Positions 8,535-53,363 are shown, counted from the stretch's first letter. The stretch is 64,000 nt of DNA from Polyangiales bacterium (GCA_046351535.1 JAXLYG010000005.1:293334-357333), one strand, 5' to 3'. Translations and numbers: made by a program. Notes: generated from the letters alone by a model not told the origin.

Positions 8535-8568
8535 GGCGGGTGACTCCTCGGGTCTCTGCTTCGCGGGT

Positions 8569-33677: not shown

Positions 33678-33680
33678 GCC

Positions 33681-34562: not shown

Positions 34563-34837
34563 TCTCGTCGCCTCGCGCCGCGCGCGGGTCGTCTCGTGCG
34601 CTGTGCCCACGCGACGACGCGCAGTCCGCGCGGCCCCTACGCCCGACGTCGCCCATCTGACGCCCCATGGCGCACGCCATCCACGCACTGCGCGCGTGTA
34701 TGCACCGGGTTCGTTCGCGCTCGCGGTGCCTGCGCGATGTCATATCGCCATGAATCGGGCGTCTCGCGTGCGCAGCGGCGGGCGCGCTCGGCGCGCGGAG
34801 GTGTGGCGCGGGGAATGCTCAATGGGCCTCTTCGAGG

Positions 34838-36949
34838 ATGCAGATGACGGACGCACGACGTTGGGCGCTTGGGGTGATGCTCGTCGCGATGGTGGGATGC
34901 GGCGCGGACGGCGCTCCTGGCGAGCGCGGCCCTGCCGGTCCGGCCGGTGACGCTGGCGCGCAGGGGCCTCAGGGCGAGCGGGGCCCGCAGGGCGATCGCG
35001 GTCCGCAGGGCGAGCCCGGCGACGCGGCGGTGACCGTGGTGTCGGGGAGCTTCCCCGCCGCGGGGCTCACGCTGAACGTCCTCGACGCGACGGTGAGCGC
35101 CTCGGGCGCGGTGTCGGTGCACTTCAACCTCCGCGACGGGCGCTCGCAGGCCCTCACGCCGCGCGACACCGACCTCCTCGGCTTCATGGTGAGCGAGGTG
35201 GTGCTCGACGCGATGGGTCAGCCGCTGCGCTACCGCGCGCTCACGACCTGCCCCGCCGACGCGCCCCACGCCGACGTCCGTCAGTCGTGCATGGAGTGGG
35301 CGATGCGGAGCGGCGCGCTCGCGAGCGACCGCCTCACGCAGCGCGCGGACCTCTCGTGGGACTTCCGTCTCGCGACGGTGGTGCCCGCGTCGACGACGCC
35401 CACGCGCACGCTCTCGATCACCGCGCAGGGTCTCCGCCCCGGTCTGTATGCGTCGGACCCCGCCTCGGTCTCGACGGCGGTCTTCGACTTCGTGCCCGGC
35501 GGCGGCACGCCCGTCTCCGTTCGCGTGGTCGACCCCGCGGGCTGCGAGGGCTGCCACCAGACCGTGCGCGCGCACGGCGGCACCCGCGTCAACGCGACGA
35601 TGTGCGTCCGCTGCCACACCGACGAGCTCTCCGACCCCGACACCGGGAACAGCCTCAGCTTCGGCGTGATGGTTCACAAGATCCACCGCGGCGAGCACCT
35701 GCCGAGCGTCGTGGGCGGCGCGCCCTATCGCATCGTGGGGTACCGCGGCGCGGTCTCGGACTTCAGCGACGTCGCGTACCCGCAGGACCTCCGCAACTGC
35801 GAGTCGTGTCACCGCCCCACCACCGCGGCGCCGGACTCCGTTCGCTTCGCGCAGCGCCCCGCGGAGCGCATCTGCACGAGCTGCCACGACCGCACGTACT
35901 TCAGCGACGGCGCCTTGCCCACGGGCTACACGCGCCACCCGCCGGGGATGGTCGACCCGACGCAGTGCACGACCTGCCACCGCGAGACGGGCGGGCTCAG
36001 CGGCATCCGCGACAAGCACATGCTCCCGTGGCGTCGCCCCGGCGCGCCCACGATCGCGGCCACCATCGAGTCGGTGACGGGGCTCATCCCGAACACCGCG
36101 CCCACGGTGGAGTTCACCCTCCGCTCGCGTGAGGGCACGGCGATCACCGACCTCTCGGCGCTCTCTCGCCTGGGTTTTCTCATCAACGGCCCGACGGCGC
36201 CCGCGTACTCGCTGCCCGGCGTGGTGCTCCAGGCCACGGGGACCGCGGCGGTGGGCGTGACGACGAACCTCGGCGGCGGACGCTACCGCTGGGTGGCGCC
36301 CATGTCGGCCGCGCTGCCTGCGACCGCCTCGGGGACCTGGGCCATCGGCATCGAGGCGCAGCGCACCGAGACCCTCGCGGACATGACCACGTTCCGTCAC
36401 GGCGCGACCAACCCCGTCGCGTACTCGTCGGTGGCGGGCGGGCCCGTCGTGCGACGCCGTCAGGTCGTCGAGATCGCGCGCTGCAACAACTGCCACGGCC
36501 GCCTCGCGCTGCACGGGAACAATCGCATCGACAACCCCGAGTACTGCGTGATGTGCCACACGCCCACGGCGACCGACGTCTCGCAGCGTCCGTCGACGGC
36601 GGGCGCGCCGCAGAGCATCGACTTCGCGAACATGGTCCACCGGATCCACACGGGCGCGAACCTCCCGAGCGTGGCCGAGGGGCGGCCGTACGTGATCTAT
36701 GGCTTCGGCGGGTCGCGCAACGACTTCTCGAACGTGCGCTTCCCGCAGTCGCTCCTGAACTGCTCGGCGTGCCACGCCGACGGGACCACGACGACGCCCT
36801 CGGCGCGCGCCTGCACGGGCTGCCACGACAGCACCGCGACGATCGCGCACGCGCAGATCAACACCACCTCCGCGGGCGTCGAGTCCTGCGCGGCGTGCCA
36901 CGGCGCGGGGCGGACCTTCTCCGTCGCGACGTCGCACCCGGCGCCGTGA
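34838..36949 (+). CDS. Decaheme c-type cytochrome lipoprotein (703 aa) with N-terminal collagen-like Gly-X-Y repeat; paralog of 30753..33677
   Basis: Lipobox VGCGADG. (GPAGPAGDAGAQGPQGERGPQGDRGPQGEPGD) is 11 consecutive Gly-X-Y triplets. Ten CxxCH motifs. Shares the ...CxxCH...HKIH...LPSV... blocks with the upstream cytochrome. Confidence 0.85.
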   Translation: MQMTDARRWALGVMLVAMVGCGADGAPGERGPAGPAGDAGAQGPQGERGPQGDRGPQGEPGDAAVTVVSGSFPAAGLTLNVLDATVSASGAVSVHFNLRDGRSQALTPRDTDLLGFMVSEVVLDAMGQPLRYRALTTCPADAPHADVRQSCMEWAMRSGALASDRLTQRADLSWDFRLATVVPASTTPTRTLSITAQGLRPGLYASDPASVSTAVFDFVPGGGTPVSVRVVDPAGCEGCHQTVRAHGGTRVNATMCVRCHTDELSDPDTGNSLSFGVMVHKIHRGEHLPSVVGGAPYRIVGYRGAVSDFSDVAYPQDLRNCESCHRPTTAAPDSVRFAQRPAERICTSCHDRTYFSDGALPTGYTRHPPGMVDPTQCTTCHRETGGLSGIRDKHMLPWRRPGAPTIAATIESVTGLIPNTAPTVEFTLRSREGTAITDLSALSRLGFLINGPTAPAYSLPGVVLQATGTAAVGVTTNLGGGRYRWVAPMSAALPATASGTWAIGIEAQRTETLADMTTFRHGATNPVAYSSVAGGPVVRRRQVVEIARCNNCHGRLALHGNNRIDNPEYCVMCHTPTATDVSQRPSTAGAPQSIDFANMVHRIHTGANLPSVAEGRPYVIYGFGGSRNDFSNVRFPQSLLNCSACHADGTTTTPSARACTGCHDSTATIAHAQINTTSAGVESCAACHGAGRTFSVATSHPAP

Positions 36950-36960
36950 AGGGGGATGCC

Positions 36961-37503
36961 GTGACGGTCTTCACCACCCACGCGCGCGTCGCAGCGGTCC
37001 TCGCGCTCTCCCTCACGGGCTGCGCCGATCGGCCTCGCGAGATGCGTCCCCCGCCCGACGGGGGCGCGGTGACGGTGATGCCGCGCGTGCCTCACCTCGC
37101 GACGTACCCGTGCATGCAGCGCTGCCACAACGACCGCGCGCCGAACCCCACGCCGCGGGAGATGCGCGAGTTCCACACGGGCCGCGTGCTCCGTCACGGT
37201 CCGACGATTCGCAACTGCGACTTCTGCCACCCCTCGGGCGAGCTCGATCACCTGAGGCTCATCAACGGCGACGCGGTCTCGTTCAACGAGTCGTATCGCC
37301 TCTGCGGCCAGTGCCACGGCGAGAAGCTCCGCGACTGGGAGCACGGCGTCCACGGCTCGCAGTCGGGCTCGTGGGCGGGCGCGAGGCTCCGCCGCGCGTG
37401 CACGGTCTGCCACGACCCGCACGCGCCGCAGCGCCCGCAGTTCGACCCCATCCCGCCGCCGCAACGAGACCGCGCATTCCCCGCTGGAGGACATCACCCG
37501 TGA
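36961..37503 (+). CDS. Small tetraheme cytochrome c lipoprotein (NrfB/c3-like)
   Basis: Lipobox LSLTGCAD. Heme motifs CMQRCH (CX3CH), CDFCH, CGQCH, CTVCH. The GTG start was chosen after a GGGGGA RBS; 36946 is an alternative. Confidence 0.7.
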   Translation: MTVFTTHARVAAVLALSLTGCADRPREMRPPPDGGAVTVMPRVPHLATYPCMQRCHNDRAPNPTPREMREFHTGRVLRHGPTIRNCDFCHPSGELDHLRLINGDAVSFNESYRLCGQCHGEKLRDWEHGVHGSQSGSWAGARLRRACTVCHDPHAPQRPQFDPIPPPQRDRAFPAGGHHP

Positions 37504-38435
37504 GCGAGCACGACGACCCCGAGATCGTAGAGGCGCTCGAGCGAGCGAAGGTCACCCGGCGACGCTTTCTCGCCACCGTGGGCGCCGCCTCGGCCGCCGC
37601 CTGCGCGTCGGGATGCAGCGGCGGCGGCAGCGCCCGCTCCGCGGCCTGGGAGGAGTTCTTTCAGCAGCACTACAAGCGCCTCTCCGACGAGGACAAGCGC
37701 GCCATCTTCGCGCGCCTCGAGGAGAAGGTGCGGCGCAGCCACGGCGTGCGGGTGCACATCTCCGACCCCGCGCCGATGCAGGGCGTCGAGTACGGCTACG
37801 CGCTCAACCTCTCGGCCTGCGTGGGCTGCCGCCGCTGCGAGTACGCGTGCGTGGCGGAGAACAACCAGTCGCGCGATCCCGAGATCCACTACATCAAGAT
37901 CCTTCAGATGGAGAAGGGCTCGATGGACGTCGAGCGCTCGGAGACCCAGTACGAGGGGCCCGTGCCGAGCGAGGGGCACTTCTACATGCCCGTGCAGTGC
38001 CACCAGTGCCGCGAGGCGCCCTGCGTGAAGGCCTGCCCGGTGAACGCCACGTGGACCGAGCCCGACGGGATCACCGTCGTCGACTACAACTGGTGCATCG
38101 GGTGCCGCTACTGCGAGGCCGCGTGCCCGTACTTCGCGCGGCGCTTCAACTTCGCCGAGGGCGACATCAGGCCCTCGGAGATCAACCCCGACCAGGGCTA
38201 CCTCTCGAACCGGCTGAGGCCCGCGGGCGTGGTCGAGAAGTGCACCTTCTGTCTCCACCGCGTGCGGCGGGGAGAGTATCCGGCGTGCCTCGAGGCCTGT
38301 CCGACGGGGGCGCGCAAGTTCGGCAACCTCCTCGATCCGACGAGCGAGGTCCGCCAGGTCATCGACACGAAGCGCGTCTACGTGCTCCACGAAGAGGCCG
38401 GCACGCTGCCGCGCTTCTATTACTTCTTCGACTGA
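37500..38435 (+). CDS. Tat-exported 4x[4Fe-4S] ferredoxin-type subunit (NrfC/PsrB/HybA-like)
   Basis: Twin-arginine signal (TRRRFLATVGAA). Four Cys clusters (CVGCRRCEYAC...CP; CHQCREAPCVKACP; CIGCRYCEAACP; CTFC...CLEACP). GTG start overlaps the upstream stop. Confidence 0.8.
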   Translation: MSEHDDPEIVEALERAKVTRRRFLATVGAASAAACASGCSGGGSARSAAWEEFFQQHYKRLSDEDKRAIFARLEEKVRRSHGVRVHISDPAPMQGVEYGYALNLSACVGCRRCEYACVAENNQSRDPEIHYIKILQMEKGSMDVERSETQYEGPVPSEGHFYMPVQCHQCREAPCVKACPVNATWTEPDGITVVDYNWCIGCRYCEAACPYFARRFNFAEGDIRPSEINPDQGYLSNRLRPAGVVEKCTFCLHRVRRGEYPACLEACPTGARKFGNLLDPTSEVRQVIDTKRVYVLHEEAGTLPRFYYFFD

Positions 38436-38448
38436 GGGGAATGGCGCG

Positions 38449-39699
38449 ATGGGCTCGGTGGCGATGCACGTGCGTGAGCTGTTCGCGTTTGTGAAGGCCT
38501 CGGCGGTCGAGGTCGCGCGCGGCAGCCGCGGGTACTACCGCTGGCTGGCGTTCCTGACGGCGCTGGTGGTCCTCGGCGGCCTCGCGTGGGCGCAGCAGCT
38601 CATGCGCGGGATGACCGTCACGGCGATGACCGACCAGGTCCCGTGGGGGGCCTACATCGCGAACTTCTCGTTCACCGTGGGCCTCGCGTCCGCGGCGCTC
38701 GTGATGGTCGCGCTGGCGTACATCCGTCACGACGAGCGGGCCGCCGAGCTCGTCATCGTGGGGCAGGTGATGGCCATCGCCGCGCTCACGATGGGGATGC
38801 TCTTCGTCGTCGTCGACATCGGCCGCCCCGACCGCGCGTGGCACCTCATGCCGGGCCTCGGGCGCTTCAACTTCCCCATCTCGATGCTGTCGTGGGACGT
38901 GGTCGTCCTCAACGGCTACCTGCTGCTGAACTTCTACCTCGCGACGTACACCCTCCTCGCGCGCTTCCGCGGTAGGCCCATCGACAAGAAGAAGTATCGC
39001 CCCGTGCTCGGCGCCGCGATGGTGTGGGCCGTGTCGATCCACGTGGTCGCCGCGTTCCTCTACTGCGGCCTCGCGGGCAGGCCCCACTGGCACGCCGCGG
39101 TGCTCGCGCCTCGCGTCGTCGCCTCGGCCTTCGGCAGCGGCCCCGCGATGCTCATCATCGTGCTCACGGTCATCCGCGACCGCATGAACGCCCCCGTGCG
39201 CGACGAGACCATCGGGCTCCTCCGCGGGATCGTCACGGCGGCCGTGTACGCCAACCTCTTCCTCCTCGGCGCCGAGCTCTTCACCGAGCTCTACGGCGGC
39301 TCGGTGCACTCGGCGCCGCTGCGCTACCTGCTCTTCGGGCTCCACGGTCACCACCTGCTCGTGCCGTACATGTGGCTCTCGATCGTGCTCGATCTCTTCT
39401 CGGCGACGGTGTTCTCGCTGCCGGGCCTCTTCAACCGCAAGCGCGTGCTCCTCACCGCGTGCGGCACGACCATCGTCGGCATGTGGATCGAGAAGGGCAT
39501 GGGCCACGTCATCCCGGGCTTCATTCCGAGCTCCCTCGGCGAGATCGTCGAGTACAGCCCGTCGCTCACCGAGACGCTCGTCTGCGCGGGCGTGTGGGCC
39601 GCGGGCGGGCTCGTGCTCACCCTGATGCTCAAGGTCGCGATCCCCGTCGAGTTCCACGGGCTCCGCATCGATCGCCCCGAGGCGGGAGGTGCGTCGTGA
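38449..39699 (+). CDS. NrfD/PsrC-family integral membrane quinol-interacting subunit
   Basis: 416 aa with about 10 TM helices. Its size and position after an NrfC-like gene are typical of NrfD/PsrC/ActC. Confidence 0.75.
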   Translation: MGSVAMHVRELFAFVKASAVEVARGSRGYYRWLAFLTALVVLGGLAWAQQLMRGMTVTAMTDQVPWGAYIANFSFTVGLASAALVMVALAYIRHDERAAELVIVGQVMAIAALTMGMLFVVVDIGRPDRAWHLMPGLGRFNFPISMLSWDVVVLNGYLLLNFYLATYTLLARFRGRPIDKKKYRPVLGAAMVWAVSIHVVAAFLYCGLAGRPHWHAAVLAPRVVASAFGSGPAMLIIVLTVIRDRMNAPVRDETIGLLRGIVTAAVYANLFLLGAELFTELYGGSVHSAPLRYLLFGLHGHHLLVPYMWLSIVLDLFSATVFSLPGLFNRKRVLLTACGTTIVGMWIEKGMGHVIPGFIPSSLGEIVEYSPSLTETLVCAGVWAAGGLVLTLMLKVAIPVEFHGLRIDRPEAGGAS

Positions 39700-40346
39700 G
39701 GCGCTTCTTCTTCGGGCTCGCGCTCGCGGTCACCGCGTCGTGCCAGAGCCCCACGCCCACGACGAACGTCGGCGCCGACACGCTCGACCTCGGGCTCACG
39801 CCCGCGGGCGCGGTCTCGGGCGAGCTCGACGGCGCGCGCTTCACGCTGCGTGAGGCGTGGTTCCGCGTCGATCGCAGGGAGCCGCGCGCGCGCGTCGACC
39901 TCATCCTCTCGGAGGGGCGCGCCACACGGCTCTGCGCCACGTCCGATCCGCCGCACGCGCGGCACATCCTCGTGCGCGTCCCGCGCGCGCAGTCGCTCGC
40001 CGTGGGGACCCTGCGTGGCGCGCCGGGCGCCGAGACGCCGGTCTCCGCGAACTTCGAGACCCACGCGTCGGACCACTGGGTCGGGCGACCCGGGAGCGTC
40101 GCCATCGCGATCGACACCTCGACGCCGACGCTCGTCACCGGGCGCATCCGCGCGTGCTTCGGCCCCGGCGCAGAGGGCTGCGTGGCGGGCGCCTTTCAGG
40201 CTCGTCAGTGCGTGACCGAGCTCGACCTCGACGGCCCGCTCACCGGGAACGTGCGCCCCTCGACGGACGACGCGGGCGCGCCCGCCGCCGCCCCCGCCGC
40301 AGGACACGCAGTGCCGCCGACCGAGCACGGAGGCGCGTCGCCGTGA
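39696..40346 (+). CDS. Lipoprotein of unknown function, within the cytochrome operon
   Basis: GTG start after a GGGAGG RBS, overlapping the upstream stop. Lipobox VTASCQS. Confidence 0.5.
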   Translation: MRRFFFGLALAVTASCQSPTPTTNVGADTLDLGLTPAGAVSGELDGARFTLREAWFRVDRREPRARVDLILSEGRATRLCATSDPPHARHILVRVPRAQSLAVGTLRGAPGAETPVSANFETHASDHWVGRPGSVAIAIDTSTPTLVTGRIRACFGPGAEGCVAGAFQARQCVTELDLDGPLTGNVRPSTDDAGAPAAAPAAGHAVPPTEHGGASP

Positions 40347-41926
40347 AGTCTCCAAGGCGTGAGAGAGGGGCTTCGAAGGGCGCTGCCGCGGCGCGCGTCG
40401 CGGGCGTCCTCGCGCTCACGTTGCAGGGCTGCGCCGACGTGCGCGAGACCCCCACGGTCGCCACGCCCGACTGGGAGCTCGACCTGCGCCCCGCGCTCAC
40501 CGCCGCCTGCGCCCGCTGCCACGACGGCGACACCCCCGCGGGTGACTGGGCCGTCAGCCGCTACACCGACGCCGTCTCGTGCTTCGAATCGCTCGACGGC
40601 GGCGTGGGCGTGAGCGTCGCCAATCGACTACGTCGCGCGCTCGGTCGCGACGACCACGCGTCGTACTTCAACGCCGCGCTCCGACGCAGCATCGACGCGT
40701 GGATCACTGGAGGCGCGAGGCCCCGCCGCGGATCGATGCACGAGGGCGGCTTCGTCGACCCGCGCTCCCCGTACTTTCACGGCCGACTGCTCCGCGCGTC
40801 TCGCTGGGCGCAGATGCTCGACGGCACCCGTCAGGACGCCTGCGGACGCTGTCACGACGGCACGCCCTCGCGTCCGAGCACCGTGCGAGAGGGCGCTCCC
40901 GCGGCGGGCGCGACGCCCTGCACCGCGTGTCACACCGCGACCGCGGGCGTGCTCGACTGCTCGACCTGCCACGGCGAGGGCGGACGCGTCTGGCCCGGAC
41001 CGACCTGCCGCATGCTCCCCGCCACGCACGGCGACGCGCACGCGCGACACGTGCTCCCGGGCGCGGCGCTGCTTCAGCCCCTCGCGTGCGCGACCTGTCA
41101 CCCCGCGCGCGACACCAACCTCGCGACGGGCTCGCACGGCGACGGCACCATCGACGTCCGCTTCGACACCGCGATCGTCGGCGCCACGGCGCGCTACGAC
41201 GCGGCCAGCGGGTCGTGCACCGTCTCGTGCCACAGCGCCGACGCGATGAGCCCCACGCCGCACTGGCGCACGCCGTCGTCGGGCCCCACCTGCGCGGGCT
41301 GTCACGGCGCCCCCCCGGCGGGCCACTGGACGCAGCCCTGCACCACCTGTCACTTCGAAGCCAACGCGACGGGTACCGCGCTCGCGCGCGCCGCGCTGCA
41401 CCTCAACGGCCGCGTCGACTTCGGCGACGGCACCAACAACTGCGGCTCGTGCCACGGCAGCAACGGCGACCCGTGGCCGCGCGACGCGACCCACCAGGCC
41501 CACCGCAACGCCAGCGTCACCACGCCGGTGACCTGCGACGAGTGCCACGAGGTCCCCGCCACGATCACCGCCGCGGGGCACCTCGACGATCGCGGCGCGG
41601 GCGACCTGCGCTTCGGCGCGAGGGCGACCGCGCGCGGCGCGAGGCCGTCGTACGTGAGCGGCTCGTGCGTCTCGGTCGCGTGTCACGGCGAGAACCTCAT
41701 CGGGCGCTCCGGCGTGCGCATCGCGTGGCGCGGCGGCTCCGTTGCGGGCAACTGCGTCGGATGTCACGGCGCGCCGCCCGCGCTGCCCCACTCGAACAAC
41801 GGCTCGTGTGAGCTCGTGCTGTGTCACGGCTCCGAGGTCGAGCGCGTCGACGGCGCGCTGCGGATCATCGCGTCTCAGCGCGCCTCGCACATCAACGGCG
41901 TCGTGACCGCGGGGGGTGCGCGATGA
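40343..41926 (+). CDS. 13-heme c-type cytochrome lipoprotein of the Geobacter CX(3-4)CH...CXXCH type
   Basis: Lipobox LTLQGCAD. Ten CxxCH motifs plus CTVSCH (CX3CH), CVSVACH and CELVLCH (CX4CH). GTGA overlap with the upstream gene. Confidence 0.8.
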   Translation: MKSPRRERGASKGAAAARVAGVLALTLQGCADVRETPTVATPDWELDLRPALTAACARCHDGDTPAGDWAVSRYTDAVSCFESLDGGVGVSVANRLRRALGRDDHASYFNAALRRSIDAWITGGARPRRGSMHEGGFVDPRSPYFHGRLLRASRWAQMLDGTRQDACGRCHDGTPSRPSTVREGAPAAGATPCTACHTATAGVLDCSTCHGEGGRVWPGPTCRMLPATHGDAHARHVLPGAALLQPLACATCHPARDTNLATGSHGDGTIDVRFDTAIVGATARYDAASGSCTVSCHSADAMSPTPHWRTPSSGPTCAGCHGAPPAGHWTQPCTTCHFEANATGTALARAALHLNGRVDFGDGTNNCGSCHGSNGDPWPRDATHQAHRNASVTTPVTCDECHEVPATITAAGHLDDRGAGDLRFGARATARGARPSYVSGSCVSVACHGENLIGRSGVRIAWRGGSVAGNCVGCHGAPPALPHSNNGSCELVLCHGSEVERVDGALRIIASQRASHINGVVTAGGAR

Positions 41927-43260
41927 GGCCCGCCGTCGTCATCGTGGCGCTCGTGCTCGTCGTCGAGCGCGGCGACGCCCTCGCGCAGTCGCACGCCGAG
42001 TCGCGCGACGAGTCGCACGTCAGCGTGCGCATCGACAGCGTGTTCCGCGGCGTCCCGCGCTACGTGCTCACCGCGGCCGACGGGCAGGCGAGCGCCGCCG
42101 ACCGATACTGGCGCACCGTCACGCTCGCGCCGATCATGGCGCGCGCAACGCTCGACGCGCGCGGGCTCTCGAACGGTCACCTCGAGGCGCACCTCAACGC
42201 CTGGGGCGCCGTCGACCTCGCCGCGGCGGACCCGCAGGCGTACGCGGCGGGCGACCTCGCCGTCGCGTGGGCGCGCTACGCGGCGGGGCCGTGGGGCGTG
42301 TGGGCCGGGCGACGCTTTCTCCCCTGGGGCTCGCCCGGCGGCGTGCACATCGACGGGATCGGCGGAGAGGTCATCGCGGGCGGCTTCAACGCCGAGGTGA
42401 TGGTCGGACGCCCCGTGACCCCCGCGTACGGCGCGCTGGTCGGCGCGCAGCCCTCGTTCGACGGCGTGACCGTGGCCTACGGCGCGCGCGTCGGGTGGAT
42501 GCAGGCTGGCACCTTCGCGGCCTCGGCGTCGTACCTCGAGCGCTGGGCCTACGGCGTCGCGGGCGTGCGCGCCCTCTCGCTCGACGCGTCGTTCACGCCG
42601 ACGGAGCGCCTCGACCTCCGCGCGGGGATCGCCTTCGACGCGGCCGGCGGCGGCGTCACGCAGGCGAGCGCCGACGTCGACTGGACGCCGGCGTCGTGGG
42701 GGCTCGTCGGCGCGGGCTACGCGCACGTCGACCCGTCGAGGCTCATCCCGAAATGGTCGATCTTGAGCGTGTTCGCGACGCAGGTCTTCGATGAGATGAG
42801 GGCGTCGTTCACGTGGCGTCCCTCGCGCGTGGTGTCGCTGCGCCTCGAGGGCGCCGGGCAGCGCTATGACATCCCCGGTTCGAACGAGGACGCGCGCTGG
42901 GGCTCCCGCGTCGAGGCGATGCTGCGGGTGACCTCTCGCGATCGCTCGCGGCAGGGGACGCTCTCGGCGAGCCGCCGCGATGACGGCGTGCGACCGCTCA
43001 CGCTCGTGCGCATCGCGGGCATGTGGACGCTGCCTCGCAACATCGGGGTCGCGCTCGAAGGCGCCGCGGCGCTCGACGACGACGACCCGAGCTCGCCGCG
43101 CACGTCGCTCTACGCGCGCGCCGCGGTCGACGTCCCCCTCGGACACGGCTGGCGCGTCGGCGCCGCCATCGACGGCGTGCGGTCGCCCATCGCGCTCAGC
43201 GAGCTGCGCGGGCTCGCCCACGGGACCTGGACCTTCGAGAGCCGCGGAGGCGCGCGATGA
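41923..43260 (+). CDS. Putative outer-membrane beta-barrel (porin-like) protein embedded between cytochrome genes
   Basis: Signal peptide (VALVLVVERGDALAQS). Gly/Ala/aromatic-rich with an alternating amphipathic pattern. No heme motif. ATGA overlaps on both sides. Its position matches Pcc-type porin genes. Confidence 0.45.
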   Translation: MRPAVVIVALVLVVERGDALAQSHAESRDESHVSVRIDSVFRGVPRYVLTAADGQASAADRYWRTVTLAPIMARATLDARGLSNGHLEAHLNAWGAVDLAAADPQAYAAGDLAVAWARYAAGPWGVWAGRRFLPWGSPGGVHIDGIGGEVIAGGFNAEVMVGRPVTPAYGALVGAQPSFDGVTVAYGARVGWMQAGTFAASASYLERWAYGVAGVRALSLDASFTPTERLDLRAGIAFDAAGGGVTQASADVDWTPASWGLVGAGYAHVDPSRLIPKWSILSVFATQVFDEMRASFTWRPSRVVSLRLEGAGQRYDIPGSNEDARWGSRVEAMLRVTSRDRSRQGTLSASRRDDGVRPLTLVRIAGMWTLPRNIGVALEGAAALDDDDPSSPRTSLYARAAVDVPLGHGWRVGAAIDGVRSPIALSELRGLAHGTWTFESRGGAR

Positions 43261-44321
43261 GCCGCCTCTTCGTCGTCCTCGCCGCGCTCCTCTTCGCCGT
43301 GAGCTGTCAGCGCGGAGACACCGAGCGGGTGCGCCCCGACGCGATCCGCTTCTCGCACGGCAAGCACCTGCGCGCGGGCGCGACGTGCCCGCAGTGCCAC
43401 GCGCGCGTCGTCGACCCCGCCGCGGACACCGCCCGCACGCGCAACCTCGCGCTCCCCGCGGAGGCGGTATGCACGGGCTGCCACACGCGCCCCGAGGAGC
43501 GCGCGTGCGCCTACTGCCACGCCGAGCCGCGCAACCCTCGCACGTACCTCCGCACCGACCGCGAGCTCAACTTCTCGCACGCGACGCACGTCGCCCGCGA
43601 GCGCGGCGGCTGCGTGTCGTGCCACGGCCTGCGCGCCGACACGTCGACGGTGCGGCCCTTCGAGCCCGAGATCCCGACGATGGCCGGGTGCGCCACGCGC
43701 TGCCACGACGCGGACATGCGCGCGATGAACTGCACCAAGTGTCACCGCAGCCTCGACCGCTACAGCATGGAGGACCTCGCCTTCGTGCGGCACCCCGCGG
43801 GCTTCGCGCGGCGACACGGGACGCAGGCGCGCGCCGAGAGCAACCTCTGCTCGCAGTGTCACGAGCCCAACTTCTGCGCGCGGTGCCACAACCCGAGCGC
43901 GGGCGCGCCGCTGGCCGACCTGGAGCTCATGTCGGTCGCGCGAGATTTCGTGCACCGCGGTGACTTCCAGGCGAGGCACGCCGACGAGGCGCGGCTCACG
44001 CAGAACACCTGCACGCGCTGCCACGCCGTCGAGACCTGCGACGGGTGCCACCGCACGAGCGGCATCGGCGGAGGCGTCGGCCCGAGGGCCACGCACCCCG
44101 TCGGCTGGCTCGACCCCAACTCGCCGCGCAGCCACGCGCGTGAGGCGCGGCGGAACATCCTCGCGTGCGCGTCGTGTCACGAGACCGACGCCGCGCAGGT
44201 CTGCACGCCCTGCCACCGCGAGGGCGGCGGCGCGGGCAACCCCCACCCGCCCGGATTCGCGGCGGGCTTCGATCGAACGCAGCACTCGGTCTGCCTCGTG
44301 TGCCATACACACGCGCCTTGA
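43257..44321 (+). CDS. 13-heme c-type cytochrome lipoprotein
   Basis: Lipobox LFAVSCQR. Twelve CxxCH motifs plus CATRCH (CX3CH). ATGA overlap with the upstream gene. Confidence 0.85.
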   Translation: MSRLFVVLAALLFAVSCQRGDTERVRPDAIRFSHGKHLRAGATCPQCHARVVDPAADTARTRNLALPAEAVCTGCHTRPEERACAYCHAEPRNPRTYLRTDRELNFSHATHVARERGGCVSCHGLRADTSTVRPFEPEIPTMAGCATRCHDADMRAMNCTKCHRSLDRYSMEDLAFVRHPAGFARRHGTQARAESNLCSQCHEPNFCARCHNPSAGAPLADLELMSVARDFVHRGDFQARHADEARLTQNTCTRCHAVETCDGCHRTSGIGGGVGPRATHPVGWLDPNSPRSHAREARRNILACASCHETDAAQVCTPCHREGGGAGNPHPPGFAAGFDRTQHSVCLVCHTHAP

Positions 44322-44346
44322 GACTCCGACGGAGACGTGACTTCCG

Positions 44347-44802
44347 ATGAGCGATCAACAGCGACCCCCGGACCCGAAGCGTCGAAGGCTCCTCGACGGC
44401 GCGCTCGTGGTCGCCTCCTGCGCGGCGGGCGTGTCGGCGGCGTTGCCCGCCGTGCGCTTCGCCACACCCCCGTCGGATGGGGCGACGGGAGCCTCCGCGT
44501 CGGTGCGCCGCACTGAGGTGCTCGCCGCGGGGTCGAAGCTCGTCGAGGTCGCGGGCGACGTGGTGCTCGTGGTCGCGGTGGGCGGCGAGCTCCGCGCCTT
44601 CTCCGCGCGCTGCACGCACCTCGGGTGCACGGTGCGCTACGCCCGCGCCACGGGCGAGATCGAGTGTCCGTGTCACGGCGGCCGCTTCGCCGTCGACGGG
44701 CGGGTGATCGCGGGGCCGCCTCCCGCGCCGCTCCACGAGTACGAGGTGACCGTCGCGGGCGACGACGTCGTGATCGAACGGAGGCGCGCATGGACCGGGT
44801 GA
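44347..44802 (+). CDS. Rieske [2Fe-2S] protein with Tat signal
   Basis: RRRLLDGALVVA twin-arginine signal. CTHLGC ... CPCHGG Rieske boxes. Confidence 0.9.
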   Translation: MSDQQRPPDPKRRRLLDGALVVASCAAGVSAALPAVRFATPPSDGATGASASVRRTEVLAAGSKLVEVAGDVVLVVAVGGELRAFSARCTHLGCTVRYARATGEIECPCHGGRFAVDGRVIAGPPPAPLHEYEVTVAGDDVVIERRRAWTG

Positions 44803-45815
44803 ACCCCACCGACTCGCTCGCGTCGCGCTACCCCACCGACGCCCTGCGGCTCCGCCTCACGGAGGCCCGCGTCGACGGCTCGCGCATGGCGCTGACGCTC
44901 CTGGCCGCGCTCTCCGCGGCGCTCGTCGCCGTCGAGTTCGCGACGGGCGCGCTGCTCGCGCTCTACTACCGCCCCGAGCGCGAGGGCGCCCGCGCGTCGG
45001 TGCAGTTCATCATCTCGCGCGTGGAGTTCGGCGAGCTCGTCCGATCGATCCACGTGTGGGGCTCGCACGCGCTGCTCGCGTCGCTCTTCGCGCTCGTGGG
45101 CGTGGCGCTCTTCGCGGGCGTCCACCGCCGACCGGGCGAGGTCGCCTGGTGCGCGCTGGTCACGGCGTGGTTCCTCGGGCTCGCGTCGGCCTTCACGGGC
45201 GCGATGCTCCCGTGGACGGCGCGCAGCGCGCTCGACGCGACGCTCGCCTCGGAGGCCACGTCGCGGCTGCCGATCCTCGGACCGGGCCTCCGCGCGATCG
45301 TGTTCGGCGCGCCGTCGCAGGGCGTCGACCTCGTGCGCGCGCAGGGGATCCACCTCGGCGCGCTCCCGTCGCTCTGGGGCATCGTGCTGCTCGTGGCGGT
45401 GTTCCACGCGCTCGGTCGCCTCGTGCAGGAGCCGCCGCGCGAGGGGACGCGGGTCTTCCCCGACGTCATGTTCCGCGCCGCGGCCCTCAGCGTCACGGCC
45501 TTCGGCGCCCTCCTCGCGCTCGCCTCGTGGAGGCCCGCGGGCCTCGCCGAGGCGCCGTCGCCCACGCACGCGCTCACGGGCGACCTCCGCCCGACCTGGT
45601 ACCTCGCGCCCATCGACGGTCTGCTCCGCGCCGCGCCGCCTACGATCGTAGGCATCCCCGGCGTGACCGTGCTGGTCTCGCTCGCCGCGGTGGGGGCGCT
45701 CGCCGCGCTCTCGCTGCCCCTCGTCGACCGTGGAGGCGGACGCCTCGGTCAGCGGATCGGACTCGCGCTGTATGCGCTCCTGCTGGGGGTGATGACCTTT
45801 GCGCTCCTTCGCTGA
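44790..45815 (+). CDS. Cytochrome b (bc/b6f-type, fused N- and C-terminal domains)
   Basis: ALYYRPERE...IHVWGSHALLASLF matches the His-ligand helix pattern. About 8 TM helices. Start overlaps the Rieske stop by 13 nt. Confidence 0.75.
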   Translation: MDRVNPTDSLASRYPTDALRLRLTEARVDGSRMALTLLAALSAALVAVEFATGALLALYYRPEREGARASVQFIISRVEFGELVRSIHVWGSHALLASLFALVGVALFAGVHRRPGEVAWCALVTAWFLGLASAFTGAMLPWTARSALDATLASEATSRLPILGPGLRAIVFGAPSQGVDLVRAQGIHLGALPSLWGIVLLVAVFHALGRLVQEPPREGTRVFPDVMFRAAALSVTAFGALLALASWRPAGLAEAPSPTHALTGDLRPTWYLAPIDGLLRAAPPTIVGIPGVTVLVSLAAVGALAALSLPLVDRGGGRLGQRIGLALYALLLGVMTFALLR

Positions 45816-47031
45816 CATCGCCCTCGCGCTCGCGGTCGCGCTCGCATCGACGGCCGTCGCCGCCGAGGAGCACTGCGGCCAGTGCCACGCCACCCTCCGC
45901 GAGGCGCGCCTGCGCACGCCCGCCGAGGCCCTTCGAGAGAGCGTCCACGACGCGCCTCGCGTGGGCTGCTCGGGCTGCCACGGCGGTCGCGCCTCGGAGG
46001 CCACCACGGCCGCCCACGACGCCGCCGCGGGCTTCGTCGCGCGCCCCGACCTCGCCGTCACCTCCGAGCGCTGCGGCGCCTGCCACGCCGACGCGCGCTT
46101 CATCCGCCGCGCGAGCGCGACGCTCCAGGTCGATCAGCTCGCGCTCTTTCGCGCCGACGCGCACGGCCACGCCGTCGCCGACGGCCGCGTGCGCGCGCCC
46201 TCGTGCGCCTCGTGTCACGGCGCCCACGACATCCGTCACGTCGCCGACCCCTCGTCGCCCGTAAACCCGCTGCACGTCGCAGAGACCTGCGGACGCTGCC
46301 ACGAAGGACCCACCGCGATCCGCGGCGCGCGCCCCGCGAACGAGCCTCCCTCCGCGTGGAGGGCGAGCGTCCACGGCCGGGCGCGCGTCGAGCGCGGCGA
46401 CGAGAACGCCCCCACCTGCGCGAGCTGCCACGGCGCGCACGGCGAGTTCCGCGAAGCGGGCGGACCCGACGCGCGCTGCGGGAGCTGTCACCGCGACGAG
46501 GCCGAGGCCTTCACGCGCAGCCCCCACGCGGCGCCCTTCGCGCGCCTCGGCTTCTCGGGGTGCGTGCAGTGCCACGGGTCGCACGGCGTCGGCGAGGCCG
46601 GCGGCGCGCTCCTCGGGAGCGGCTCGAGCAACGTCTGCGGTCGTTGCCACGACGGCGCGCAGAAGGCCCTCGAGACGGCCTCACGCCTCGACGCCGCCCG
46701 CGCCGGCGCGCTCCGCGCCGTCGACGAAGCGGCGGACCTCATGCGCCGCGCCGATCGCGCGGGGCTCTCGATTCCAGAAGGCGCTTCGAAGCTCGAAGAG
46801 GCCCGCGCGGCGCAGCAGCGCCTCGACGTGGCCCTCCACACGCTCGACGAGCGCGTGGTCGCGGGCGCGGTGCGCGAGGTGACGAGCGCCGCGACGGCCT
46901 CGCAGCGCGCGGCGCGCCGGACCCTCGGCCTCCGTGACCGTCAGCGTCGGGCGTGGCTCCCCGTGGTGGGCCTGCTCTTCGCGCTCGGAGCCCTGCTGGC
47001 GCTCCGCTCTCGCAACGGGGGCGACCGGTGA
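45799..47031 (+). CDS. Nonaheme c-type cytochrome with signal peptide and C-terminal TM anchor
   Basis: Nine CxxCH motifs. C-terminal WLPVVGLLFALGALLAL. A TTG start is inferred because there is no in-frame ATG; it overlaps cytochrome b by 17 nt. Confidence 0.75.
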   Translation: MRSFADIALALAVALASTAVAAEEHCGQCHATLREARLRTPAEALRESVHDAPRVGCSGCHGGRASEATTAAHDAAAGFVARPDLAVTSERCGACHADARFIRRASATLQVDQLALFRADAHGHAVADGRVRAPSCASCHGAHDIRHVADPSSPVNPLHVAETCGRCHEGPTAIRGARPANEPPSAWRASVHGRARVERGDENAPTCASCHGAHGEFREAGGPDARCGSCHRDEAEAFTRSPHAAPFARLGFSGCVQCHGSHGVGEAGGALLGSGSSNVCGRCHDGAQKALETASRLDAARAGALRAVDEAADLMRRADRAGLSIPEGASKLEEARAAQQRLDVALHTLDERVVAGAVREVTSAATASQRAARRTLGLRDRQRRAWLPVVGLLFALGALLALRSRNGGDR

Positions 47032-49301
47032 ACGAGGAGCCGTCGACCGCGCGCGCACGCCCGAGGCTGCGTCCGTCATGGGGCGTCCTCGCGGCCGTGG
47101 CGCTCGCGCTCGTGGCGCTCTTCGCGGGCGCCGAGCGCGCCACCCGCTCGGATGACTTCTGCGCGTCGTGCCACGCGAGCTCGCGCGCGCACCTCCGCGG
47201 TCATCAGGGCACCCGCTGCGACGCGTGCCACGCCGCGAAGACCGCGGAGCGCCTCGGGCTCCTCGCGCGCTCGATCACGCACACCGCCGCGAGCCGCCAC
47301 CACGCCGCCGTCGACCCGACGACCTGCGTCTCGTGCCACCAGGACCGCGCGGGCTCGTGGCGCAGGCTGATGTCGACCGAGGGGCACGCGTCGCACACGA
47401 CGGGCGCGCGCAAGACCGACTGCGTGCGCTGCCACGGGCCCTCGCTCCACGACAAGCCCGACCCCGGCGCGCGCTGCGTCGCGTGTCACGCGAGCACGCC
47501 CATGCGCTCCGAGCCGCGCGACGAGGGCTCGTGCGTGCGCTGCCACGCCTTCGGCGCGCGCCCCGCGGCGCTCGCCCGCCAGGTGCCCTCGGCCCACGGG
47601 CCCCGCGTCGACGGATCGCGCATCCACGGCGCCGTCGACTGCCGGAGCTGCCACGACCCGCACCGCGACACCAACGACCGCGGCACGCACGACGGCAACG
47701 ACTGCGTGCGCTGCCACCGCGGGAGCATCGCGTCCGAGGTGGCCGCCGGGCCGCGCGGTCACCGCGAGTGCCTCGGGTGTCACTCCGCGCACGCCGAGAG
47801 AGGCCGCGCGGGCATCGACTGCGGACGCTGCCACGAGCCGCCTCCGCCGCGCTCGACGCACCAGGCGGAGCCGTCGCGCAGGCAGCCCGCGGCCCGGGTG
47901 ACGCCGTGGGTGACCTTCGCGTCTGGAACGACCACCGCGGTCCCCGACGCGCGCACCCCCAACGCCCCCACCGCGCGCCCCGCGCACACCGACTGGACGC
48001 TCACGGGCGTCTGCTCGACCTGCCACCGCCCGCACACGTGGACGGCGCACACCGACGACTGCCGCACGTGCCACGCCGGCCCCTCGACGTCGCTCCCGCG
48101 CGACGGTCGAGGCCACAACGAGTGCGTCGGCTGCCACGACCCGCACGCGCCCGTCCCCAACGCAGACACCTGCGCGACGTGCCACCAGAACATCGCGGCC
48201 GCGACCCATCAGGCGCCGCCCACGCCGCACCAGGACTGCCTCTCGTGTCACGCGCAGCACGACCCGCGGCGCCCCACGGCGTCGACGTGCGAGCACTGCC
48301 ACGCAGCGCCCACGGCGGGCGTCGCGCACGGCCCCGACGAGCACCGCAACTGCCTGTCGTGCCACGAGCAGCACGGTCCGCCCGCGGCCAACGCCGAGCG
48401 CTGCGCGCGCTGCCACGCGGCCGAGGTGTCGTCGACCGCGACGCGCGCGACGTCGCTCTCGGGCGTGCACCAGCGCTGCGAGAGCTGCCACACGCCGCAC
48501 GAGTTCGAACGCGCCAACGCGCGGACCGCGTGCGTCCACTGCCACGAGCGCGCCGCCGCGCCCACGTCGAACCACCGCGGGACGTGTACGCAGTGCCACG
48601 CGCCCCACGCGAACATCAACGCCCGCGGGACCGACTGCGCGACGTGCCACGCGGGCGTCCGCGCGGTGGGCTCGGAGCGTCCCGGCTCGGCGCACGCGCG
48701 CTGTCAGTCGTGTCACACGCCGCACACGGCCGCGCGCGGCGCCCTCCAGCGGTGCCCGACGTGTCACGCGCGGCAGGTCTCCGTCGCGCGCACGTGGCCC
48801 GCGGAGTCTCCGCACGCGGGCCGCTGCGAGTCGTGCCACGACATGCACGGACCGACGCCGCGGGTGGCCTGCGCGAGCTGCCACGCGCCGCAGAACAACG
48901 CGTCGCACATGGGACGCCACACCGACTGCGTGGGCTGCCACGCGCCGCACCAGGACCGCCCCTCCGGCGGCGCCTCGGCGTGGTGGAACCGCTGCGCCAC
49001 CTGCCACACGCAGCAGGCGACCGCGGCGCAGACCGGCGCCGTCGCGCACCGGGCGTGTTCGAACTGCCACCAGCGCCCGGGCTTGCGGGCGCCGACCTGC
49101 GCGACCTGCCACGCCCAGGCCGCGGGCACGCTGCTCCACGGTCACCCCGCGCACGCCAACTGCGCCGGGTGCCACCCCCCGCACGGCACTGGAATCCCCG
49201 AGCGGGCGCAGTGCGTCGCGTGTCACCAGAACCGGGCGCAGCACTTCCCCGATGCGCCGCGTTGCCAGTCGTGCCATCCCTTCGGCACGCAGGGACGATG
49301 A
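47028..49301 (+). CDS. Giant (~33-heme) c-type cytochrome with N-terminal signal-anchor
   Basis: 33 CxxCH motifs counted across 757 aa, almost all in a C-x2-CH-x(8-20)-H periodicity. N-terminal VLAAVALALVALFAGA. GTGA overlap with the upstream gene. Confidence 0.85.
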   Translation: MNEEPSTARARPRLRPSWGVLAAVALALVALFAGAERATRSDDFCASCHASSRAHLRGHQGTRCDACHAAKTAERLGLLARSITHTAASRHHAAVDPTTCVSCHQDRAGSWRRLMSTEGHASHTTGARKTDCVRCHGPSLHDKPDPGARCVACHASTPMRSEPRDEGSCVRCHAFGARPAALARQVPSAHGPRVDGSRIHGAVDCRSCHDPHRDTNDRGTHDGNDCVRCHRGSIASEVAAGPRGHRECLGCHSAHAERGRAGIDCGRCHEPPPPRSTHQAEPSRRQPAARVTPWVTFASGTTTAVPDARTPNAPTARPAHTDWTLTGVCSTCHRPHTWTAHTDDCRTCHAGPSTSLPRDGRGHNECVGCHDPHAPVPNADTCATCHQNIAAATHQAPPTPHQDCLSCHAQHDPRRPTASTCEHCHAAPTAGVAHGPDEHRNCLSCHEQHGPPAANAERCARCHAAEVSSTATRATSLSGVHQRCESCHTPHEFERANARTACVHCHERAAAPTSNHRGTCTQCHAPHANINARGTDCATCHAGVRAVGSERPGSAHARCQSCHTPHTAARGALQRCPTCHARQVSVARTWPAESPHAGRCESCHDMHGPTPRVACASCHAPQNNASHMGRHTDCVGCHAPHQDRPSGGASAWWNRCATCHTQQATAAQTGAVAHRACSNCHQRPGLRAPTCATCHAQAAGTLLHGHPAHANCAGCHPPHGTGIPERAQCVACHQNRAQHFPDAPRCQSCHPFGTQGR

Positions 49302-49579
49302 AACTCGACGCGGACACTCGCTCGTTACAGTTCTCCTCCGAAGAAGAGCTTCAGCGCTTTCACGACGACCTCACGGAGCTCATCCGCGTGGCCACCGTGA
49401 GCGTCACGAAGAACGTCGAGGTCGAGGTCGCCACCGAGCGCGCGCGGGAGCTCATGCGCCGCCACGCCACGGTGCTGCGCTGCCTCAACCAGCTCCGGCG
49501 CGTGCTCCCGCGCCACGCCTCGGGCGTCGACGACCACAAGGTCGCCCCCGAGCGAGGCGACCCCCCCGACGAGACCTGA
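49298..49579 (+). CDS. Small acidic hypothetical protein (93 aa), last gene of the cytochrome operon
   Basis: ATGA overlap with the cytochrome stop. Coherent, non-Arg-rich composition. Confidence 0.4.
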   Translation: MKLDADTRSLQFSSEEELQRFHDDLTELIRVATVSVTKNVEVEVATERARELMRRHATVLRCLNQLRRVLPRHASGVDDHKVAPERGDPPDET

Positions 49580-49588
49580 TCGCCTCGC

Positions 49589-52693: not shown

Positions 52694-52859
52694 GCCGCGA
52701 CCGTAGAGCGTCTCAGCGAACAAGTGAATTGTGGCGAAACCACCACAAGGAGAGGCGTTTGGTGCACACGACGTGAGGCGCGAAAGACGCTCTCCACGCC
52801 GCTGTGCAATTGTCGTTTGCCGACGTGCACGCGGCCGCACATCGCGCGTGAGCGAGCGC

Positions 52860-53363
52860 TCAATCACCCAGATCGAGTTCCCAGAATCCCACGTCGTGCC
52901 ACGCGGCGAACTTGTATCCGACGGCGTGAAAGGTCCCGACGTGACGGAAGCCGAGCGCCTCGTGGAGCCGCACGGAAGGCTCATTGGGCATGGTGATTCC
53001 CGCGACGACGACCCTGAATCCACCGAGCTTCAAGCGACCGAGGAGCACCCCGTAGAGCGCGCTCGCGACGCCCGTCCTCCGCGCCTCGGGTGCGACGTAG
53101 ATGCCCGTCTCGACGGTGCGCGCATACGCGTCTCGCTCTCGCCAACGACCCGCCTTGCAGTACCCCGCGAAGCGACCGTCGATGTCAGCCGCGACCCAGG
53201 GAAAACGCCGATCGCGTCGCTCCCAGGCCGCGGCGAAGTCCTCCTCGGAGGCTGGCGTCTCACCGAAGTGCACGGTGGTGTGCACGATGAAGTGGTTGGT
53301 GAGCGCGCACGCGGGCGCGATGTCGCGCGCTTCGAAGTCCCTCACGATCAGCTCGGAGCTCAT
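52860..53363 (-). CDS. GNAT N-acetyltransferase (phosphinothricin acetyltransferase-like)
   Basis: ETGIYVAPEARRTGVASALYGVLLGRLKLGGF is the GNAT A motif. 167 aa. Confidence 0.75.
   Translation of the reverse strand: MSSELIVRDFEARDIAPACALTNHFIVHTTVHFGETPASEEDFAAAWERRDRRFPWVAADIDGRFAGYCKAGRWRERDAYARTVETGIYVAPEARRTGVASALYGVLLGRLKLGGFRVVVAGITMPNEPSVRLHEALGFRHVGTFHAVGYKFAAWHDVGFWELDLGD

Follow-up and report, generated by a model that had tools for sequence, protein, structure and literature searches.

A candidate extracellular electron-transfer locus joining a porin-cytochrome conduit to two quinol-oxidising modules in an uncultured Polyangiales bacterium

The DNA considered here, referred to as the window, is a stretch of 64,000 nucleotides (nt) from an uncultured Polyangiales (Myxococcota) bacterium (GCA_046351535.1, JAXLYG010000005.1:293334-357333), in which a dense run of multihaem cytochrome genes occupies positions 30753-49579; the locus is known here from metagenome-assembled genome (MAG) sequence alone. 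Its fifteen genes, numbered g01 to g15 and all on the plus strand, carry 92 haem sites, and the reading that we favour, with some reserve, is that they form a self-contained extracellular electron-transfer (EET) locus that would reduce acceptors outside the cell. Under this reading the cluster is a new combination, with new protein families, within a kind already known, the porin-cytochrome EET pathway with Cbc-type quinol oxidoreductases.

A sequence-only reading of the window had described a 13-gene, translationally coupled operon at 34838-49579, and its interpretation of the cluster is largely supported. These thirteen genes (g03 to g15) are real at those coordinates, with open frames, no internal stops and a guanine-cytosine (GC) content at third codon positions (GC3) of 0.89-0.97, in a window whose GC content is 69-78% in 2-kb bins (72-78% in the cluster bins) and where spurious frames crowd the raw list of open reading frames (ORFs). 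The junctions that it had listed are also present, namely GTGA overlaps at 37500, 39696, 40343 and 47028, ATGA overlaps at 41923, 43257 and 49298, and overlaps of 13 nt at 44790 and 17 nt at 45799; to these can be added a GTGA overlap at 36946, so that coupling starts at the first junction. Two gaps lie within 34838-49579, of 13 nt (g05/g06) and 25 nt (g10/g11). The total of 82 haems for this part of the locus was reproduced as well (10, 4, 13, 13, 9 and 33 motifs, counting CxxCH plus CX3-4CH). What had to be changed is the extent of the unit, which starts at 30753: because g01 and g02 are conserved with the cluster in two related loci (L003 and L006), and because divergently oriented genes of unrelated kinds adjoin it on both sides (that of a VWA protein, ending at 30607, and that of an SSF symporter, starting at 49589), the revised unit comprises 30753-49579, with 15 co-oriented and mostly overlapping genes.

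A barrel pattern scan of 185,579 species-representative genomes returned 13 loci, all in Myxococcota MAGs labelled Polyangiales, Sandaracinaceae or 'Myxococcaceae/Deltaproteobacteria' and obtained from sludge, groundwater and lake sources. The scan and the protein searches reach only moderately distant relatives; within that reach all named homologues came from MAGs and no cultured genome with the cluster was found. The gene order from g03 or g01 to g15 is kept in ten species-level MAG loci (L003 and L006-L014) at 40-97% protein identity, with identical haem counts and with most of the 4-nt overlaps retained, while the flanking genes (SSF, NHL) are conserved only in L003. Such recurrence goes well beyond chance. 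Since order, haem counts and overlaps are kept while the flanks differ, gene comparison argues strongly that the block is under selection as one unit.

More distant variants indicate which part of the block is most conserved. In L016-L018, which belong to a different lineage (GC 64%), a shorter, minimal cluster contains a distant barrel homologue (about 26% identity) and consists, in order, of a collagen-tagged MtrC-like decahaem cytochrome, an OmcB-like 12-haem cytochrome, the barrel, a 13-haem cytochrome, a NapC/NirT tetrahaem cytochrome, a small membrane protein of 64-68 aa and a monohaem cytochrome c (L016 6268-13493; L017 6271-13440). L019, from a Polyangiaceae MAG (GCA_019637295.1, 8652-12710), has only the barrel, a 12-haem g10-like and a 15-haem g08-like cytochrome, in the order known from ombB-omaB-omcB in Geobacter; upstream of this trio there is a gene resembling those of Ser/Thr kinases. 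L015, from a Sandaracinaceae MAG (JACKEC010000034.1, 6334-19853), keeps g04, g05, g07-g10, g13 and g14 together with MtrC, and NrfD, Rieske and cytochrome b are absent throughout 21 kb; its MtrC-like gene is shifted to the 3' end, and behind it comes an additional cytochrome (about 690 aa) whose GSU2203/DmsE-like matches are weak. The core shared across variants is cytochrome-barrel-cytochrome, usually with OmcA/MtrC. That this trio, which the sequence-only reading had singled out, behaves as a unit is borne out by its occurrence alone in L019 and joined to a NapC/NirT module in L016 and L017. Because the trio recurs in L015, L016-L018 and L019 with differing inner-membrane parts, the conserved core is, on this comparative evidence, a predicted porin-cytochrome conduit to which the quinol modules are attached interchangeably. 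These natural variants are the best functional evidence obtained, and they show the pattern to be expected if such a conduit takes electrons from any quinol dehydrogenase available.

The central member of the trio, g09 (41923..43260), is confidently predicted from its structure model to be a plug-less 22-strand outer-membrane beta-barrel. The sequence-only reading had made its proposal depend on this very gene encoding such a barrel, and the model bears it out. No Pfam or NCBIfam match was obtained for g09, which represents a new family with 37-42 clusters among 5.8 billion proteins; the exact protein is present on activated-sludge contigs. The genes on either side, g08 and g10, each overlap an end of g09 by 4 nt. 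The g08 product (40343..41926) is a 13-haem lipoprotein cytochrome with OmcB-type CxxxxCH/CxxCH domains (TIGR01904, GSu_C4xC__C2xCH, 75.6 bits against a cut-off of 27), whose 10 CxxCH and 3 CX3-4CH motifs are invariant across loci and whose homologues flank the barrel in L016, L017 and L019. The g10 product (43257..44321) is a second 13-haem lipoprotein cytochrome, with 12 CxxCH and one CX3CH motif. Of the 39 Cys/His residues in its motifs, 36 do not vary among 60 homologues, and for a second Cys conservation exceeds 90%. Its homologue in L016 and L017 is 34% identical and lies right after the barrel, and its family comprises 146 clusters, in which all organism-named matches come from Myxococcota MAGs. 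An AlphaFold2 model of g10, made as a test of a rod-like, MtrA-like shape, had a mean pLDDT (predicted local distance difference test score) of 71 with a poor C-terminal half, and a Foldseek search of this model against the PDB gave no matches. By analogy with known trios, g08 would be the extracellular member and g10 the periplasmic one. The outer cytochrome g08 is always preceded by g07 (39696..40346), a conserved haem-free lipoprotein of 216 aa that has no Pfam or NCBIfam match and has orthologues in 11 of 11 full loci (28-88% identity).

At the 5' end of the unit lie the genes of two decahaem cytochromes, g01 (30753..33677, 974 aa) and g03 (34838..36949). Their TIGR03507 scores (298.7 and 349.9 bits, respectively, against a cut-off of 209.3), the two stretches matched in each by Pfam PF22113 (Mtrc-MtrF_II-IV_dom), and the presence in each of 10 CxxCH motifs and a lipobox (AACAG and VGCGA) identify them, at the sequence level, as true OmcA/MtrC-family decahaem lipoproteins. 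Against PDB sequences, g03 matches OmcA (4lmh, 3e-24) and MtrF (3pmq, 4e-17) and also UndA structures, and it would act as a surface terminal reductase. In L006-L008 g01 occupies the position that g03 has ahead of the tetrahaem gene; it does so directly in L007 and L008, and after the peptidyl-prolyl isomerase (PPIase) gene in L006. A feature of g03 is a collagen-like (G-X-Y)14 stretch after the lipobox (residues 22-63, window 34898-34963; Pfam Collagen, 31.3 bits). Between 14 and 21 uninterrupted G-X-Y triplets directly follow the lipobox Cys in g03, in L003, in L010-L014 and in the distant L016 protein (6268-8808), which suggests a trimeric stalk holding the cytochrome off the membrane. We know of no collagen-like stalk in Shewanella cytochromes, and in the literature library searched no paper paired 'collagen-like' with 'multiheme cytochrome'. 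In g01, residues 58-81 (30924-30995) form a (G-T-N)-rich run of 8 G-X-X triplets, at the place of which L006-L008 have G-S-P or G-X-N variants; this run may be a second kind of stalk or spacer. The N-terminal repeats of g01 contain Cys and give weak matches to DUF4988 and TIGR04203. Starting 3 nt past g01, g02 (33681..34562) encodes a PpiC-type PPIase lipoprotein (Pfam Rotamase_2, E = 2e-13), conserved in L003 and L006, that is probably a helper of folding or assembly.

Between g02 and g03 lies the sole long gap of the unit (34563..34837, 275 nt). It is 89% identical to its counterpart in L003, and its near-invariant core (about 34670-34760), which includes the relatively AT-rich GATGTCATATCGCCATGAATC, may be an internal promoter, operator or regulatory site. 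No sigma-70 consensus was found in the gap. A promoter scan of 30300-50000 returned no promoter-like sites, which is uninformative for a myxobacterium of 72% GC, as are, at the same GC content, the 5 terminator-like sites found in this region against 3.1 expected. Alignment of the region upstream of g01 across L006-L008 likewise revealed no conserved motif. The gene arrangement points to co-transcription of the cluster as a single transcript.

The first of the two inner-membrane modules, g04-g06, had been called 'NrfBCD-like' in the sequence-only reading. Its iron-sulfur (FeS) and NrfD parts hold, and the label proved loose: the cytochrome has four haems, against five in NrfB, the layout is that of Geobacter Cbc4, and the NrfD protein is of the DsrP type. 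Assignment to the NrfBCD family was rejected. The g04 product (36946..37503) is a CbcS-like tetrahaem lipoprotein cytochrome with three CxxCH and one CX3CH motif, joined by GTGA overlaps on both sides; its haem count is invariant across 12 loci and profile scans against Pfam and NCBIfam gave no Cytochrom_NNT match. The g05 product (37500..38435) is a ferredoxin with four [4Fe-4S] clusters, of the NrfC/DsrO/QrcC/CbcT type, exported by the twin-arginine translocation (Tat) pathway (Pfam Fer4_11, E = 9e-19); it has the twin-arginine motif RRRFL and four Cys groups, and its best NCBIfam match is DsrO at 160 bits, below the cut-off of 200. A rival ORF at 37613-38494 was considered as the FeS gene and discarded as an artefact of the high GC content (72-75%), since it has a GC3 of 0.48; the value is 0.95 for 37500-38435, where the Tat motif and the Cys clusters lie. 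Lying 13 nt downstream of g05, g06 (38449..39699) encodes an NrfD-family integral membrane, quinone-interacting subunit of the DsrP type with at least 8 hydrophobic helices. It scores 120.6 bits with Pfam PF03916 (NrfD; gathering score 25.8) and 350.7 bits with NCBIfam DsrP, a borderline value for a cut-off of 350, and in a PDB search it gave weak matches to ActC of alternative complex III (ACIII) and to the PsrC-type NrfD.

The second inner-membrane module consists of g11 to g13. The gene assignments of the sequence-only reading were essentially right, and its Rieske and cytochrome b genes were recovered by Pfam and NCBIfam searches. The g11 product (44347..44802) is a Tat-exported Rieske [2Fe-2S] protein of the bc/b6f type (Pfam Rieske, PF00355, 55.9 bits, E = 4e-15; best NCBIfam match PetC). 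Both cluster-binding boxes with their disulfide cysteines, CTHLGC and CPCHGGRF, are invariant (CTHLGC and CPCHGG in 11 orthologues); box II has Gly and Phe where Ser and Tyr might stand, which on the basis of established Rieske redox tuning would suit a centre of low potential and menaquinol type. The g13 product (45799..47031) is a nonahaem cytochrome (9 CxxCH, a count invariant across loci) that has a signal peptide and whose C-terminal part comprises a helical region and a membrane anchor; its hydrophobic segments at 4-22 and 384-402 give it a topology that matches cytochrome c1 or f.

Between them, g12 (44790..45815) encodes a cytochrome b in which b6 and subunit IV are fused (Pfam Cytochrome_B, 67.9 bits; best named NCBIfam match ExtP at 93 bits, below the cut-off of 290). 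The bL pair, His88 and His188, is present and both ligands are invariant in the orthologues. In an ungapped alignment to cytochrome b6, Leu102 takes the place of His100, the helix-B bn/bH ligand, and no orthologue of g12 has a His at or near this position; a conserved helix-D histidine, His206, lies 18 residues past His188 rather than 14-15. The protein consequently lacks the four-His bL/bH ligand set of bc1/b6f cytochrome b. In a set of the 150 nearest representatives, drawn from 1.84 billion proteins, every aligned sequence has His at both bL positions and only 114 of the 150 have the helix-B bH His; in the closest 30 or so relatives this position is mostly Tyr, Gln, Leu, Thr or Trp, and the helix-D bH His is often lost too. 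A sizeable set of the nearest relatives, proteins of about 340 aa with fused b6 and subunit IV, has thus lost one or both bH ligands. The Qo motif is PTWY in the window and P-[T/S]-W-[Y/F] across orthologues, as opposed to PEWY. Neither PTWY nor PSWY occurs in the text of a Qo-motif survey that left out sequences lacking bH ligands and noted only Pyrobaculum as being without a bH ligand (PMC4122944).

The last two genes are g14 and g15. The g14 product (47028..49301) is a cytochrome that has 33 CxxCH motifs and contains 78 His and 4 Met. A single membrane helix (residues 17-35) lies at its N-terminus, and dihaem repeats at spacings of 17 and 21 residues make up its C-terminal two thirds. All orthologues of the window clade have 33 CxxCH motifs, and that of L015 has 32 CxxCH and one CX3-4CH. 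Such a protein would be an inner-membrane-anchored periplasmic haem wire and could probably reach across much of the periplasm. Since the PCC3 cytochromes of Gallionellaceae, with 21-27 haems, are already considered able to span the periplasm (PMC10734462), g14 could, by analogy, hard-wire both membranes. It is followed, through an ATGA overlap, by g15 (49298..49579), a conserved protein of 93 aa with no signal peptide and no family match in profile scans, for which orthologues were found in 10 loci (33-97% identity).

From the family assignments and the topology of the products (lipoboxes, Tat motifs and the single anchors in g13 and g14), the following route can be proposed. Menaquinol would be oxidised at the inner membrane by the Cbc4/NrfCD-type proteins g04-g06 and also by the Rieske/cytochrome b pair g11-g12, with the C-terminally anchored g13 as a c1-like partner. 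Electrons would enter a periplasmic haem network, formed mostly by g14, and would cross the outer membrane via g10 on the periplasmic side, the g09 barrel and g08 outside. They would end on the surface cytochromes g01 and g03, with Fe(III)/Mn(IV) oxides, humic substances, electrodes or partner cells as acceptors. In Geobacter, ImcH, CbcL and CbcBA act at different acceptor potentials, and by this analogy the most likely arrangement of the two quinol modules is a parallel one, each serving acceptors of a different potential.

Several points weigh against this outward, EET reading. The placing of g08 and g10 on their sides of the membrane, and of a cytochrome inside the barrel, relies on lipoboxes and analogy (for g08, the OmcB-type domain). 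The single transcript is open to doubt, in that the 275-nt gap before g03 could hold a promoter. In L015, g04 and g05 occur without NrfD, which indicates that both are not strictly dependent on a co-encoded NrfD. Rieske/cytochrome b proteins usually serve high-potential acceptors and are an odd fit for Fe(III)-oxide reduction. In addition, since g12 is without a haem bH ligand, a normal Q cycle appears unlikely for it and the electron path is hard to place. Finally, MtrC and porin-cytochrome systems are also found in Fe(II) oxidisers (PMC10734462), and the sequence gives no direction of flow.

This last point leads to the main rival, an inward flow, which we regard as unlikely though deserving of attention. 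In such a scheme electrons would be taken up from Fe(II), Mn(II), reduced humics, cathodes or partner cells and passed through the periplasm to a terminal oxidase or reductase, and to the menaquinone pool via a reversed NrfD and/or Rieske/cytochrome b. The occurrence of MtoAB with MtrC, PCC3 and Uet in iron or cathode oxidisers, and of a PPIase accompanying Uet (PMC10734462), would be consistent with it, as would the source habitats, which are oxic-anoxic interfaces (activated sludge, groundwater, lake). For Rieske/cytochrome b complexes whose Qo motif is altered, reverse operation has been proposed (PMC4122944), and the motif here is P-[T/S]-W-[Y/F] rather than PEWY. However, the cluster contains neither Cyc2 nor MtoA nor any other marker of oxidisers, and the window offers no context of carbon fixation; in the simpler relatives the conduit stands beside a NapC/NirT-type protein, classically a quinol dehydrogenase; and the Geobacter counterparts Cbc4 and ext are tied to Fe(III) reduction (PMC5877670; 10.1101/2025.04.14.648717). 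No single one of these arguments is decisive.

The missing bH ligand motivates readings in which the two modules work together by a split Q loop or a bifurcation. In the broadest form, which is rather improbable, the whole locus would encode a hard-wired assembly spanning the envelope, with a new energy-coupling core in which the bH- and Qi-less Rieske/cytochrome b and the NrfD module make up a split Q loop or a Qo bifurcation. The high-potential electron would pass to the 33-haem wire, the conduit and the collagen-stalked, possibly trimeric OmcA/MtrC, and the low-potential electron to the quinone pool or to low-potential minerals. Somewhat harder to credit is the narrower proposal that the modules act in series as a split Q loop and not in parallel: quinol would be oxidised at the Qo site of the bH-less g12, one electron leaving via the Rieske protein outward and the low-potential bL electron, with no Qi site within its reach, passing on the periplasmic side over c haems to g04 and g05 and then to menaquinone at NrfD or to a low-potential acceptor. 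The helix-B bH ligand is absent in every orthologue and the bL ligands are invariant, and NrfD, Rieske and cytochrome b occur together in 10 loci and are jointly absent in L015; both observations favour the proposal. Yet the proposal is entirely inferential and no known system works in this way; L015 retains g04 and g05 without either membrane partner, and the co-absence in one MAG is weak evidence; moreover, the conserved His206 may still help to bind a second haem with an unconventional ligand.

The cluster could also be read as encoding a periplasmic reductase for a soluble oxyanion or sulfur compound, with the barrel as substrate channel in the manner proposed for ExtI. The nearest named family of g12 is indeed ExtP, ExtI has been discussed as a possible selenite/tellurite channel (PMC5877670), and g07 and g15, being without family match, could be catalytic subunits. 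Nevertheless this is very doubtful: the modelled barrel, with 22 strands and no plug, far exceeds the width required of a substrate-specific porin, two lipoprotein multihaem cytochromes (one with OmcB-type domains) flank it in every case and OmcA/MtrC accompanies it nearly always, and Pfam and NCBIfam scans of the cluster returned no molybdopterin, rhodanese, sirohaem or other catalytic subunit. Least credible of all is that independent respiratory operons lie side by side by chance, as might be thought from the 275-nt gap before g03 and from the separation of the modules in L015, L016 and L019, given that about 10 species, down to 40-50% identity, share one order of 13 genes in which stop and start codons overlap at most junctions, that the flanks differ (SSF and NHL being shared only with L003) and that internal terminator-like sites do not exceed chance.

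Under the favoured EET reading, the nearest precedents are Geobacter Cbc4, Geobacter ext and PCC3. The sequence-only reading had been aware of no described single operon combining all of these parts. In the literature library searched there was no description of OmcA/MtrC, a Cbc4-type module, a porin-cytochrome trio, Rieske/cytochrome b and a 33-haem cytochrome in combination, and none of an EET system in Polyangiales; the claim of novelty is nevertheless only partly right, since Geobacter ext already joins porin, multihaem cytochromes, Rieske and cytochrome b. The inner-membrane part of this Geobacter cluster is also named Cbc6. The conserved, Fe(III)-responsive cluster extHIJKLMNOPQS encodes the porin ExtI, the cytochromes ExtKL, ExtM, ExtN and ExtS (lipoprotein and periplasmic multihaem proteins, with haem numbers of 5, 12, 10 and 4), the Rieske protein ExtO, the cytochrome b ExtP, and ExtQ (PMC5877670). 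The layout of barrel, multihaem cytochromes, Rieske, cytochrome b and cytochrome runs parallel in the window, and ExtP is the best named match of g12. Geobacter ext alone has a rhodanese, a selenocysteine cytochrome and separate genes for cytochrome b and subunit IV; it is without an NrfCD module, OmcA/MtrC and a 33-haem cytochrome, all of which are present in the window cluster, where a single gene covers both cytochrome b and subunit IV, a bH ligand is missing and the barrel lies outside named families.

Geobacter Cbc4 consists of CbcS, CbcT and CbcU, a tetrahaem, a 4x[4Fe-4S] and a membrane subunit, and has been proposed to be a menaquinol:cytochrome c oxidoreductase for EET (10.1101/2025.04.14.648717). 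The composition and order of g04-g05-g06 are equal to it, a comparison drawn from the description and not from sequence alignment. CbcS has a transmembrane helix and a NapC/NirT-like haem core, whereas g04 is a lipoprotein with one CX3CH motif and no NapC/NirT signature, and Cbc4 is not linked to an outer-membrane conduit, as g04-g06 are. The DsrMKJOP, Qrc and ACIII complexes share with this module a periplasmic FeS protein, an NrfD-type quinone subunit and a c-type cytochrome, with g06 at the DsrP cut-off and g05 nearest to DsrO. They differ in that no DsrM, DsrK, trihaem DsrJ or molybdopterin-like QrcB/ActB accompanies it and in that the context is EET, not sulfate reduction. Membership of DsrMKJOP was rejected on this account, DsrM and DsrK not being among the scanned products of the cluster and its flanks, with no further candidate ORF inside and with four haems in the cytochrome instead of three. 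In Methanoperedens, a cluster of NrfD, FeS and multihaem proteins is upregulated on electrodes (PMC10874420).

With porin-cytochrome (Pcc) conduits, such as OmaB/OmbB/OmcB of Geobacter and PCC3 of Gallionellaceae, the window cluster shares adjacent genes for what would be a periplasmic cytochrome, a barrel and an extracellular lipoprotein cytochrome. The CxxxxCH/CxxCH domain of g08 recalls Geobacter OmcB, and PCC3 likewise has very haem-rich cytochromes that possibly span the periplasm (PMC10734462). It departs from them in that the g09 and g10 families were found here only in Myxococcota MAGs, in its 13 + 13 haems, and, relative to PCC3, in that the longest cytochrome (33 haems) is separate and inner-membrane-anchored and not a barrel partner. 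The logic of Shewanella MtrCAB/OmcA, in which a quinol dehydrogenase, periplasmic cytochromes, a barrel-sheathed cytochrome and a surface decahaem cytochrome follow one another, is also recognisable, but there is no MtrA (the DmsE model gives 29 bits on the g14 N-terminus, against a cut-off of 192) and no match to the MtrB family, whose Shewanella member has 26 strands where the g09 model has 22. In view of these two results, membership of the MtrAB/PioAB/MtoAB group was rejected.

Polyangia are regarded as aerobic predators and polymer degraders. If the locus does serve EET, they would join the organisms with dedicated EET machinery, and they are common in soil, groundwater and wastewater. 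The variants would also illustrate how such pathways are assembled, with a conserved core and different quinol dehydrogenases (NapC/NirT; Cbc4-like with Rieske/cytochrome b; or none in cis). Three molecular oddities stand out, namely the 22-strand conduit barrel family, the bH-less cytochrome b clade and the decahaem cytochromes on collagen-like stalks. A cytochrome b clade that keeps bL without canonical bH ligation calls into question whether all Rieske/cytochrome b complexes run a Q cycle, and the envelope-spanning assembly, if true, would be a new mode of energy conservation in extracellular respiration, within Polyangia. The gene order being conserved over about 10 species, the cluster is a good target for heterologous expression and for marker surveys with hidden Markov model (HMM) sets of the FeGenie type.

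Among the neighbouring genes, an NHL-repeat gene (51383-53023, minus strand) was considered as a member of the cluster, by analogy with the Uet conduit cluster, which includes NHL proteins (UetHI) and a PPIase (PMC10734462); it is conserved only in the near-identical L003 and was rejected as part of the core. In both the window and L003 it stands two genes downstream of the cluster, and another NHL gene lies near the L016 cluster.

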